A DNA stretch of 63,427 nucleotides, the filler included, from an uncultured archaeon (GTDB lineage: Archaea; Iainarchaeota; Iainarchaeia; Iainarchaeales; 1-14-0-10-31-34), in assembly GCA_964442255.1 (NCBI GenBank). It is 3 parts of 3 records of this genome, joined end to end, with 100 filler letters (N's around TTAATTAATTAA, not from the genome) between each part and the next. Parts side by side here need not be neighbours in the genome. Positions count along the whole stretch, not along the records: positions 1 to 27,888 come from CAYTYC010000017.1; 2 more parts are not named here. One strand, given 5' to 3'. Below are positions 1 to 3,000 of the stretch, piece by piece. The stretch's first letter is position 1; each line of letters starts with the position of its first letter. The position numbers were made by a program.

Positions 1-3000
1 TTCTCCGCCGAAGGCGGCCCTTTTTAATCAAACTTTTTGGAAAAAAGTTTGTTTTGATAAAACTTTTGGAAAAAAGTTTTTTGGCGAAGCAATCCGCAAA
101 CCGCTGCCTGAAGGCAGCGGATTTCTTTGGGTTGTTAAAATCAATTTTTTTGGCGCCTTACGCAAGAATTATCCCGATGCATCTGACAATAATTTTTGGG
201 GGAATTTTCCTTGCGTCAGGAGTGGGCGGAACCGTTGTGCTCGTGTTCTTCCTCCTGCTTAACTGCCGCCGACGCGGGAATGCATGCGCTGAAGCACGCC
301 AACAAAAAGAATTAAATAGAGTTATAGCCATGGACATAAATAATTGAACTTTTGTACATTAGGAAATGCTTTAGTTTGCCAAAATGCAGGCAAAAAACAA
401 GGTTCCAAAAACCAAAAAGTTTCCAAAACTTATGTCCGATACTATTAAACCAAATATTCTGTGTTTTACATGGAATTCAGATGGCTATCGGAAGTAAAAA
501 GAGGCTCTCAGGGCTTCCAAAATCTGGTCAAGGATTTGGCGGAAGCGGGAAAGGGCCGCGAAGGAAACTGGAATGAAGAAAAAATAATCGATTACCTTGA
601 AAGGCATTCCTATGATTGCCTGCTTGCGCTCGACGGAAAAAAGTTTGCAGGCTTTTGGGCGGTGAACAAGGACAAAGAATCAGGAATAATGAAAGGGTTT
701 ATGGTTTATGTTTCCCCAGAACACCAGGGAAAAGGGTTATCCAGGGCTCTGACCGTGGAGCTTGCAAAAAGGGCGCATTCAGAAGGCTTCAGCCACGGGC
801 AGCTTGGCTTGGGCAAAGGAAAAATTTCAAGGGTTCTTGCAAGTACACAGAGAAAAAGAAAAGAACTTGGGGCAAGCGGATTCAGTTTCAACCATAAAAC
901 AGGGAAAGTGGTCTTTCCTAAGAGAAAAATAAGGGGTTAAGAAGTGTATTGGTACAGAGATCCCACAGAAAGCTTTATAAATCCGCATATTAATATATAT
1001 TATAGAAATTCTCATTTCCAGAAGCCCTGAACCGGGTTTCGAAAATAAGCAGTTAATGCTTAATTGCCTCCATCCATTTTTATGGGTGCAAAGAAGCAGG
1101 CCTCTGGCGTGCCTCCCGCACCCAGAAAGGGATTCAAGCTTTTTTGAATCTAAGTGGTTTGATTCATTTCCATTTCCTTTTCAGGTTTTGGGAAAAGTTT
1201 GCAGGCTAAGCCAGGTTTTGCAGAATCTTTTTTTTCAAAAAGTTTGTCGGCGAAGCCGAATTGGCAAAGCCGGTTTTGATGAAACTTTTTTGAAAAGTTT
1301 CTTTTGGCGGAGCCTTTTTTTGATGAAACTTTTTTGAAAAGTTTCTTTTGCTCAAGCTTTTCTTAAAAGCTTGTCCGGCGAAGCCGGGTTTTTTGATCAA
1401 ACTTTTTTTCCAAAAAAGTTTGGCTGAAAGGAAATCTGGAGTTGAATTTCCCATCCAATTTCATTAAGTATTCCAAACTGATTCCAGCTGATCCTGCTGG
1501 AGGATACTGCTATTGAAGTTCGATTTAGACATGCAAGTCCCAAAGGCAAAGCCATGATTGCTTTTGGCGAACGGCTCAGTAACACGTAGGTAACCTACCC
1601 TTGAGCGGAGCCAAACCCGGGAAACTGGGCATAATGCTCCATAGGCGAAGGCAACTGGAAGGTGCCTTCACTGAAACGCAAGCACTTCATGCTGTGCAAG
1701 CGCTCAAGGATGGGCTTGCGGCGGATTAGGTTGTTGGCGGGGTAACTGCCCACCAAGCCGAAGATCCGTACGGGCTTTGAAAGAAGTGGCCCGGAGAAGG
1801 GAACTGAGATAAGGTCCCTAGCCCCACGGGGTGCAGCAGTCGCGAAACCTTTACAATGCGCGCAAGCGTGATAAGGGAACTTCAAGTGCCGGCAATGCCG
1901 GCTTTTACGGAGTTTAAATCGCTCCGTGAATAAGTGGGGGGCAAGATACGTGCCAGCCGCCGCGGTAACACGTACTCCACTAGTGGTGTCCACTAATATT
2001 GGGCCTAAAAAGTTCGTAGCCGGTTCAATAAGTCTTTGGTGAAAGCAGTGGGCTTAACCCATTGAAGCGCCTAAGATACTGTTGGACTCGGGACCGGGAG
2101 AGGTCAAGGGAATTTTCGGGGTAGCGGTGAAATGTTGTAATCCTGAAAAGACCACCCGTAGCGAAGGCGCTTGACCAGAACGGCTCTGACGGTGAGGAAC
2201 GAAAGCTGGGGGAGCGACCCGGATTAGATATGGAATTGAGGAAAGAGACACCAAAAGAATTAAATAGAAAGAATGAAGCGAGCTGACCGAGGTGAAATAA
2301 GCATAAGGGAAATCGCAGCCAGTGCGATGTTAAGGAAAATAATTGGTGCCAAGGAAAAAGGCAAAATTTAATTTTTTTCTCTTTTGGCTGTTCTCTTTCT
2401 TCTTTCCACTAAAAACCCGGTTAGTCCCAGCCGTAAACGATGTGGACCAGGTGTCGTAATACCTTTAGGGTACAGCGGTGCCGAAGGGAAGCTGTTAAGT
2501 CCACTGCCTGGGGAGTACACCCGCAAGGGTGAAACTTAATGGAATTGGCGGGGGCGCACTACAAGGGGTGGATGCTGCGGTTTAATTGGATTCAACGCCC
2601 GATAACTTACCAGGGGCGACAGCAGAATGATGGACACTCTGAAGGGGTTTCCTGACGCGCTGAGAGGTGTTGTATGGTCATCGTCAGCTCGTACTATGAA
2701 GCGTCCTGTCAACTCAGGCAACGGGCGAGACCCATGCCCTTAGTTGCTATTTCCAAAAATTTTTTGGGGAGCACTCTAAGGGGACTGCCGAGGCAACTTG
2801 GAGGAAGGAGTGGGCAACGGTAGATCTGTATGGCCCGAATCTCCTGGGCAACACGCGGCATACAATGGCTGAGACAATGGGTTCCGAACCCGAAAGGGCT
2901 AGGTAATCTCCTAAACTCAGCCTCAGTTCGGATTGAGGCCTGTAACTCGGCCCCATGAAACTGGAATCCCCAGTAATCGCGAGTCACGATCTCGCGGTGA

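Follow-up and report, generated by a model that had tools for sequence, protein, structure and literature searches.

A probable protein-less intron of a known archaeal type, interrupting the 790 loop of 16S rRNA in a small-genome archaeon of the phylum Iainarchaeota

The only 16S rRNA gene of a small-genome archaeon belonging to the DPANN phylum Iainarchaeota was found to carry a protein-less intron of a known archaeal type, 185 nt in length, inserted in helix 24, within the 790 loop, directly after the position equivalent to E. coli U793. We consider it highly probable that this insertion belongs, as a degenerate form without an ORF, to a mobile archaeal BHB intron family that targets the 16S site after U793 in Iainarchaeota.

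The insertion, its ends and its fold

The window, i.e., the whole 63,427-nt stretch of DNA that was analysed, contains the single SSU match of the 1.28-Mb assembly (G000), a gene of 1675 nt that matched RF01959 over model positions 1-1478 with 1369 bits, in agreement with the gene and coordinates given in a preliminary description. One large insert, after ...GGAUUAGAUA, interrupted the covariance-model match. The preliminary description had reported a 186-nt insertion at 2231-2416; the insertion itself was confirmed, but its length and end coordinate were off by one, because the 186 nt reported by cmscan are set against one model position, leaving a net insert of 185 nt, and position 2416, the first C of CCC, belongs to the exon. 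Cleavage of tRNA BHBs takes place after the second nucleotide of each bulge, and this rule places the intron at 2230-2414, whereas alignment places it at 2231-2415; the two are equivalent because A2230 and A2415 are interchangeable. BLAST searches with the exons showed that the exons of the relatives have one A in common at the junction. Excision of 2230-2414 restored the universal sequence GGAUUAGAUACCC, as expected from the earlier claim that cuts in the bulges regenerate the conserved site. The E. coli numbering given previously was also found to be correct on the annotated E. coli rrs gene, where GGATTAGATACCC occupies positions 785-797.

No ORF was found in the 185-nt intron, as reported before, and no Rfam family matched the insert at E ≤ 1 except for a 17-bit miRNA match that was regarded as noise. 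There was no Rfam match to a C/D-box or other known small RNA in the intron, in which only partial box-like words could be recognized by eye. Blastn searches for further copies of the intron in the genome gave just chance matches of 15-29 nt, and no second 16S intron was found in G000. The intron was included in a 530-nt DNA contig from run X2, a second sample, which spans 1928-2457 with 0 differences, thereby reproducing an earlier observation. The features are listed in Table 1.

Table 1. Features of the 16S rRNA gene, its intron and the 16S processing stem (positions in the window)
Feature	Position	Strand	Basis
16S rRNA gene with intron, only SSU gene in the assembly	1481..3155	+	RF01959
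Exon 1, ending ...GGAUUAGAU (E. coli U793)	1481..2229	+	Exon BLAST against intron-less relatives; numbering verified
ORF-less BHB intron, 185 nt	2230..2414	+	Unique in genome
Exon 2, beginning ACCCGGUUAGUCC	2415..3155	+	
Outer helix, 5' strand GACCCGG, native tip stem of helix 24; C2220 mismatched in MFE register	2216..2222	+	MFE fold
A2223 (E. coli A787), unpaired opposite 3' bulge or A.C with C2416; departure from strict BHB	2223..2223	+	Fold
Central 4-bp helix, exon strand UUAG	2224..2227	+	Fold, relatives
5' bulge AUA, predicted cut U2229/A2230	2228..2230	+	Fold and cut rule
Inner helix, 5' strand UGGAA, covarying in relatives	2231..2235	+	Fold, relatives
Extended intron stem, 5' strand, purine-rich	2238..2258	+	Fold
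Extended intron stem, 3' strand, pyrimidine-rich	2380..2402	+	Fold
Inner helix, 3' strand UUCCA	2404..2408	+	Fold, relatives
Central helix, intron strand CUAA; invariant in the order, CUAG in G213	2409..2412	+	Fold, relatives
3' bulge AAA, predicted cut A2414/A2415	2413..2415	+	Fold, relatives
Outer helix, 3' strand CCCGGUU	2416..2422	+	Fold
16S processing stem, 5' strand: central AAGG 1428-1431, bulge AAA 1432-1434; genome's own reference substrate	1415..1451	+	Co-fold
16S processing stem, 3' strand: central CCUU 3245-3248, bulge UAA 3249-3251	3228..3259	+	Co-fold

In the MFE fold of the BHB region (-69.2 kcal/mol, z-score -3.5, with 0 of 200 shuffles folding as well), two 3-nt bulges lie on opposite strands with a 4-bp helix between them and further helices on either side, and the structure spans both exon-intron junctions. 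The central helix together with five inner pairs at the fixed register was recovered in only 139 of 500,000 intron shuffles. The intron stem consists of 5 + 21 bp with small interruptions, which matches the stem of about 25 bp described earlier. The motif had also been termed a strict BHB; its BHB geometry was borne out by the MFE fold, but the term "strict" was not, because A2223 is unpaired opposite the 3' bulge in this fold, which also contains a C.C mismatch in the outer helix, or faces C2416 in the CCGG/CCGG register chosen in the preliminary description. As modelled, the motif is near-canonical rather than strict. The equivalent of A2223 is unpaired or mispaired in the introns of all relatives as well. 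The extra A beside the 3' bulge is forced by the fixed exon sequence A787...C795.

Introns and homing endonuclease genes at the same site in relatives

An intron at exactly this site was identified in at least 9 of 215 genomes of the phylum. This count is a lower bound, as about half of the genomes lack an assembled 16S gene, the region being present in 106 of the 196 genomes of the order, and as the search for mini-introns without a homing endonuclease gene (HEG) among the 19 genomes outside the order relied solely on a pattern in which CCGG had to precede the site; G213, where the sequence reads AUAGG, escaped this pattern, and its intron was found via its HEG. The introns measured 185 nt (G000), 101 nt (G002), 748 nt (G003), 749 nt (G057), 56 nt (G081) and 745 nt (G213), and those of G076, G110 and G173 were cut by contig ends and are given without full lengths; five metagenome contigs with introns at the same site added lengths of 113 and 753 nt. 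The carriers are scattered over five families of the order and another order, and in the order the site is uninterrupted in most of the 106 genomes that gave a match. The polymorphism described previously within the family was reproduced, with exons abutting exactly in five genomes, introns of other lengths in two and no 16S match in one, although the two introns, given earlier as about 80 and 710 nt, measured 101 and 748 nt.

The interiors of the introns are unrelated, with only about 10-20 terminal nucleotides in common among the copies. Every copy retained both 3-nt bulges, five or more inner pairs and UUAG/CUAA, with CUAG in place of CUAA in G213, and the inner helix displayed compensatory changes (UGGAA/UUCCA, UGGGAU/AUCCCA, UGAGCAAG/CUUGUUCA and UGAAUAGGG/CCCUAUUCA), while the first two letters of the 3' bulge varied (AA, AC, UU, AU or UG). 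The BHB is all that the eight distinct introns of 56-753 nt have in common, but such conservation counts overstate independence because these introns are related by descent. The 4-bp central helix of G213 was not itself predicted by the energy model. A 12-mer pattern gave 30 loci in the order, of which 22 were chance matches outside 16S genes and the one in G142 was also due to chance. A 14-mer scan across genome contigs gave at least 120 loci; as only 2 of the 120 listed lay in 16S genes with this intron, it was too unspecific and therefore uninformative on other phyla.

The long intron forms encode a LAGLIDADG_3 protein of 233-234 aa (1.2e-16), the frame being complete or so far uninterrupted in four long introns and frameshifted in one copy, that of G057. 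In the HEG-bearing intron of G003, the UAA of the central-helix CUAA is the stop codon of the ORF. At E ≤ 1e-5, matches were limited to 37 protein clusters out of 5.8 billion, which may represent a small LAGLIDADG lineage of the site's own, and the genome of G000 contains only distant LAGLIDADG homologues, 24-26% identical. No HEG remnant was detectable by tblastn in the 185-nt intron (E > 0.3), and nothing significant was found across the mini-introns. Because relatives at the same site encode an HEG, the 185-nt copy is regarded as a derivative and not an autonomous member, and the presence of intact, frameshifted and missing HEGs fits a cycle of homing, decay and loss. The scattered distribution, in 9 of 215 genomes, is the one indirect sign that the endonuclease may cleave the intron-less allele at this site.

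Splicing machinery, proposed pathway and alternative explanations

A single EndA gene was found at C19:20634-21146, encoding 170 aa with N-terminal and catalytic domains (PF02778, 34.3 bits; PF01974, 95.5 bits), of which residues 3-168 aligned with M. jannaschii EndA (1a79), gap-free in the printed alignment. The host EndA is of the alpha4 type with no visible loop insert. The RtcB ligase is also present in the genome (528.8 bits). Co-folding of both flanks of the 16S gene yielded a canonical, textbook hBHBh' BHB in the processing stem, and co-folding of the 23S flanks over a chosen range gave no clear BHB. An ARAGORN intron search called 24 of 43 tRNAs intron-bearing, none of which was found by the standard run on the window; most of these calls were regarded as over-prediction and left out of account. 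Processing-stem and pre-tRNA BHBs would share both enzyme and geometry with the 16S intron motif, which differs from them in the extra unpaired or mispaired A beside its 3' bulge. The alpha4 class of splicing endonucleases is described as strict for canonical BHBs (PMC5829648), and the combination of an alpha4 EndA lacking a loop insert with a non-canonical motif would count against splicing.

One search of the RNA-type runs for rRNA of this organism across the junction returned only 16S contigs of other organisms, the same outcome as before, and splicing is therefore something that we infer. "Joints" of 185-187 nt in X3, X4 and X7 had sides of 21-28 nt with mismatches and came from uninterrupted 16S genes of other organisms.

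In the proposed pathway, the last CUAA of the intron would pair with the exon UUAG (788-791) in the precursor, the intron ends would pair with each other (UGGAA/UUCCA) in a helix extended by the 21-bp stem, and the native tip stem of helix 24 would form the outer helix, presenting two 3-nt bulges 4 bp apart. The single alpha4-type endonuclease would then cut both bulges, at 2229|2230 and 2414|2415, and RtcB would ligate the exons and probably circularise the intron. The two-motif LAGLIDADG endonuclease encoded by full-length relatives of about 750 nt presumably cleaves intron-less 16S genes at the site, into which the intron would be copied. The 185-nt form would have lost this gene and may persist as a harmless passenger because it is presumably still spliced.

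It is possible to envisage that the insert is excised at the BHB and the halves are left unligated, which would leave the mature 16S rRNA in two pieces, broken at the 790 loop and kept together by helix 24, similar to bacterial intervening sequences. The RNA-type runs gave no ligated junction, and a nick might be structurally tolerated, as a native stem closes the hairpin loop in which the exon ends lie. We nevertheless regard this as unlikely, given that RtcB is present, that the 790 loop is universally conserved and is restored exactly by cuts in the bulges, a precision that would be unnecessary were the loop to stay open, and that the archaeal rRNA BHB introns described are, to our knowledge, ligated. 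Retention of the insert in the mature small-subunit rRNA as an expansion segment is very unlikely: DPANN rRNA insertions of uncertain fate have been reported, the splicing of the ARM-1 16S insertion being called uncertain (PMC8784108), but at the present site the length varies between 0 and 753 nt, the interiors are unrelated, some of them containing a protein gene, and only the BHB is conserved, at the tip of a universally conserved loop. The preliminary reading of a spliced-type BHB intron rather than an expansion segment is supported further by BHB covariation among the same-site introns, by the HEGs of the long forms and by the EndA and RtcB of the host.

An origin as a group I or II self-splicing intron, complete or reduced to a remnant, in place of a protein-spliced BHB intron would have precedents, since group I introns occur in archaeal rRNA genes, sometimes alongside BHB introns (PMC6125680), and since eukaryotic nuclear group I introns named S788 lie in the same rRNA loop in another domain. 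The S788 introns are, however, self-splicing ribozymes, whereas no Rfam intron family was matched at E ≤ 1 in window positions 2100-2560 or in the 748-nt intron of G003, lengths of 56-185 nt leave too little room for a ribozyme core and the boundaries fit the BHB exactly, which makes this explanation extremely improbable. An assembly artefact or chimera could be suspected from the 51 contigs of the assembly, the N gaps nearby (3269-3368) and the assembly of G110, which breaks inside the intron; it is left with next to no probability by the identical contig in the second sample and by the homologous introns of eight other genomes and five metagenome contigs, all of them at this very base.

Relation to known rRNA introns and significance

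The BHB intron described here appears to place an element of a well-known kind at a new insertion site and in a new host phylum. BHB introns of archaeal 16S genes have already been described in detail, with HEG-bearing, remnant and mini-hairpin forms among them, and the catalogue of Jay & Inskeep 2015 (PMC4496867) gives 13 loci: 374, 548, 722, 781, 803, 901, 908, 919, 978, 1093, 1205, 1213 and 1391. These crenarchaeal and aigarchaeal introns (Thermoproteales etc.) resemble the present family in having a BHB at the site, one- or two-motif LAGLIDADG HEGs, remnant or small hairpin forms and a scattered distribution, and in interrupting "universal" primer sites. They differ in that 793 is absent from the 13 loci, the nearest being 781 and 803, and in that their hosts are TACK thermophiles, whereas the present hosts belong to a DPANN phylum with genomes of 0.5-1.5 Mb. 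In Pyrobaculum oguniense, Pog.S1205 is likewise an ORF-less BHB mini-intron, whose spread depends on an endonuclease encoded elsewhere (I-PogI), but its helper is encoded by another intron next to it in that gene (PMC4496867), unlike in G000. The 16S genes of the Micrarchaeota ARM-1 and ARMAN-2 are also interrupted in a DPANN phylum, but at E. coli 1093 and by an insertion with a hypothetical protein and no recognised HEG, whose splicing is described as uncertain, and that report names Crenarchaeota, Aigarchaeota and Micrarchaeota, and not Iainarchaeota, as phyla with reported 16S insertions (PMC8784108). The intron name "S793" was not found in the literature searched.

Position 793/794 of the 790 loop may be a previously uncatalogued homing site of archaeal BHB introns, and the family appears to be confined to one DPANN phylum. 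This single site may display the life cycle of such elements, from intact and frameshifted genes through minimal hairpins of 185, 113, 101 and 56 nt to empty sites. With an imperfect 3' junction imposed by the fixed exon sequence, the introns would be evidence that slight relaxation of the BHB is tolerated in vivo by an alpha4 endonuclease without a loop. The combined proposal, of an uncatalogued site with its own small LAGLIDADG lineage in one phylum, its whole life cycle visible and a relaxed BHB accepted, is offered tentatively, with chances somewhat short of even. In a bolder version, the ORF-less forms might be retained for a benefit to small-subunit assembly, during which the 790 loop would be held open until late.

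The widely used primers 785F and 806R bind at the site that the intron splits, and the primer-site region was verified at E. coli 785-806. Amplicon surveys of V4 and V3-V4 would overlook carriers or assign them a wrong size, an argument on detection bias already made for Thermoproteales (PMC4496867). For annotation, 185 nt of the reported 1675-nt 16S gene should be masked before phylogenetic use. The series of introns from 56 to 753 nt, with one shared and slightly imperfect BHB, would provide natural tests of the tolerance of the alpha4 splicing endonuclease. In conclusion, the range of endonuclease-spliced 16S introns would come to include one more DPANN phylum and a new site in a loop of central functional importance.

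Insertion point and fold of the 16S intron

The 16S gene (1481-3155) covers the archaeal SSU model of Rfam end to end (1369 bits), and it is the only SSU match in the 1.28-Mb, 51-contig assembly (93.8% complete), as the preliminary description had it. Local cmscan placed a single insert after ...CCGGAUUAGAUA and printed it as 186 letters opposite one model position; the net insertion is therefore 185 nt, not the 186 nt first described. When the flanks were compared by BLAST with relatives that lack the intron, the two exon matches had one A in common, so that the intron is 2230-2414 or 2231-2415, and position 2416, previously taken as its end, is the first C of the exon CCC. 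Since GGATTAGATACCC occupies positions 785-797 of the annotated E. coli rrs gene, the insertion follows U793 or, if the other register is taken, A794. It thus lies in the loop capping helix 24, and the location described earlier held on the annotated gene.

Downstream of the rRNA operon, at a distance of a few kb, lies an archaeal RNase P RNA (RF00373, 97.9 bits; 9654-9924). Contig C17 makes up positions 1-27888 of the window only, the remainder being N or other contigs. Runs of N (100 or 44+44) are found at 3269-3368, 23110-23209, 27889-27988, 30810-30909, 38531-38630 and 55656-55755, the one nearest the 16S gene lying 114 nt past the gene end, within the 16S-tRNA-Ala spacer.

Structural elements of the intron junctions and features of the rRNA operon
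Feature	Position	Sequence	Remark
Outer helix	2216-2222 with 2416-2422	GACC(C)GG with CC(C)GGUU	native helix-24 tip
Unpaired nucleotide	2223	A
Central helix	2224-2227 with 2409-2412	UUAG (exon) with CUAA (intron)
5' bulge	2228-2230	AUA
3' bulge	2413-2415	AAA
Inner helix	2231-2235 with 2404-2408	UGGAA with UUCCA
Further stem	2238-2258 with 2380-2402		21 pairs, beyond a small internal loop
tRNA-Ala(UGC)	3791-3863		in 16S-23S spacer
23S gene	4235-7220		2986 nt against a 2987-position model; no large insert
Processing-stem BHB	bulges 1432-1434 and 3249-3251	central AAGG/CCUU; bulges AAA and UAA	co-fold of 16S flanks

The region 2205-2435 folded at -69.2 kcal/mol, compared with -53.3 +/- 4.5 for shuffled sequences, none of which (0/200) was as stable. 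The bulges and the central, outer and inner helices of a motif of the bulge-helix-bulge (BHB) type were all present in this fold, as claimed earlier; the qualification "strict" failed at A2223, which is either unpaired or, when the outer helix is read in the CCGG/CCGG register, opposite C2416. One extra unpaired or mispaired nucleotide thus remains at the 3' junction in either register, and the motif is therefore near-canonical. In tRNA introns the enzyme cuts past the second nucleotide of each bulge, and application of this rule gave ...GGAUUAGAU joined to ACCCGG..., the universal sequence. Of 500,000 shuffles of the intron, 139 formed the central helix together with five inner pairs at this fixed register.

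Same-site introns and their endonuclease genes

Within the family of nine genomes the exons abut in five, and two others carry introns at the same base, so the polymorphism described earlier stands with the lengths corrected to 101 nt (G002) and 748 nt (G003); BLAST found no 16S match in G001. In the order, 106 of 196 genomes match this 16S region, and a junction-pattern scan yielded 30 loci, from which BLAST retained eight genomes with an insert: 185 nt in this genome, the two relatives just named, 749 nt in G057, 56 nt in G081, and inserts stopped by contig ends at 350 nt (G076), 497 nt (G110) and 99 nt (G173). A stricter pattern across the phylum (215 genomes) gave only one further match, by chance. 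With the intron protein of G003 as query, a genome of another order (G213) proved to carry a same-site intron of 745 nt, bringing the carriers to at least 9 of 215 genomes. Five metagenome contigs also contained the intron, four with lengths of 56, 113, 748 and 753 nt and one with an incomplete copy. In G110 the 16S gene is split over contigs C53 and C12 with the break within the intron, which suggests that such introns, or mixtures of intron-plus and intron-minus strains, fragment 16S assembly in metagenome bins.

The intron interiors are unrelated, and mini and long forms align over only ~10-20 terminal nucleotides. In all eight distinct introns, exon UUAG pairs with intron CUAA (CUAG in G213, U-A to U.G), the 5' bulge is AUA, the 3' bulge is 3 nt long (first two letters AA, AC, UU, AU or UG) and at least five inner pairs form. 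The inner pairs are altered on both strands (UGGAA/UUCCA, UGGGAU/AUCCCA, UGAGCAAG/CUUGUUCA, UGAAUAGGG/CCCUAUUCA), as is the outer helix in G213 (UAGG/CCUA versus CCGG/CCGG). Because the copies share common descent, the conserved BHB is qualitative support rather than a statistic.

In G003 the intron codes for a protein of 233 aa that matches Pfam LAGLIDADG_3 (1.2e-16). Among solved structures its closest relative is the PI-PfuI intein endonuclease (3.5e-7), and the UAA stop codon of its gene lies within the central-helix CUAA. Intact genes were found in the 753-nt metagenome intron (L177, 234 aa) and in G213 (L189, G213:C1), where the frame, lacking an intronic stop, continues past the 3' splice site and on into exon 2. 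The frames of G076 and G110 are open up to the contig ends. In G076 (L153, G076:C44, from locus position 1511) the frame is open into the endonuclease from the very first intron AUG, formed by the bulge A and UG of the inner helix; the other copies have a stop between this AUG and the internal start. The endonuclease of G057 (L152, G057:C6; intron at locus 754-1502) is split, around the first third of the gene, over two frames, with a single TGA reported in frame, and compared with intact L177 it looks like a decaying copy.

The intron endonucleases belong to a small family, with 37 clusters at E<=1e-5, and LAGLIDADG homologues elsewhere in the present genome are only 24-26% identical. Among these is a free-standing 348-aa ORF outside the window (C4:11490-12533), whose end (…AGIEPATS) looks as if the frame crossed an opposite-strand tRNA T-arm; across the phylum, similar ORFs of 310-340 aa are common, as are copies carried by inteins. 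Neither the 185-nt nor the 748-nt intron matched an Rfam intron family at E<=1. The 185-nt intron is judged to be a degenerate member of a family of putative homing introns.

Other samples and processing machinery

The best-matching runs, X1 and X2, are both DNA runs from a single study. X1 may be the run from which this assembly was made, and the 530-nt contig from X2 covering 1928-2457 was confirmed to have 0 differences. The earlier attribution of the RNA-type runs to other organisms was also borne out: these matched nothing but conserved parts of the exons, and did so with mismatches. Joints over the intron in these runs had 21-28-nt sides and extra letters, as expected from uninterrupted 16S rRNA of other organisms. 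Splicing of the intron is therefore inferred rather than observed. A 108-nt contig from the RNA-type synthetic-long-read run X3 is identical to exon 2 stretch 2570-2677, and that sample may contain this archaeon or one very closely related to it, but nothing from it spans the intron junction.

The genome encodes the ligase RtcB and one splicing endonuclease (EndA) gene of 170 aa with N-terminal and catalytic domains. Over residues 3-168 the printed alignment of EndA to 1a79, the homotetramer subunit of M. jannaschii, is free of gaps, and the predicted architecture is alpha4 without a specificity loop. According to PMC5829648, alpha4 enzymes had been regarded as strict for canonical BHBs, though those of DPANN that have an L3 loop may have a wider range. 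The 16S flanks co-fold into a long processing stem (1415-1451 with 3228-3259) with a canonical BHB. The intron search of ARAGORN called 24 of 43 tRNAs intron-bearing, several with introns >100 nt. Neither of the two that this search placed on C17 was reported by a standard run over the window, and the calls are probably mostly over-calls.

Relation to known archaeal rRNA introns

Jay & Inskeep 2015 (PMC4496867) catalogue 13 archaeal 16S intron loci (374, 548, 722, 781, 803, 901, 908, 919, 978, 1093, 1205, 1213 and 1391) and describe homing endonuclease gene-bearing, remnant and <50-nt hairpin classes, as well as interrupted primers; site 793 is absent from that catalogue, while all other aspects of the present intron family occur there. 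Sakai et al. 2022 (PMC8784108) name Crenarchaeota, Aigarchaeota and Micrarchaeota as the phyla from which 16S insertions have been reported, and Nawrocki et al. 2018 (PMC6125680) mention archaeal rRNA genes in which BHB introns occur alongside group I introns. A literature search on Iainarchaeota/Diapherotrites rRNA introns, DPANN LAGLIDADG and S793, with most subscription journals, supplements and the Comparative RNA Web tables outside its scope, turned up no account of the site. Within the literature searched, both site 793 and the host phylum are new for such introns.

In conclusion, the insertion is well supported as a real ORF-less BHB intron. The finding matters mainly in practice, for primer blindness and rRNA annotation, and the same-site introns form a naturally occurring series of substrates for work on EndA specificity.
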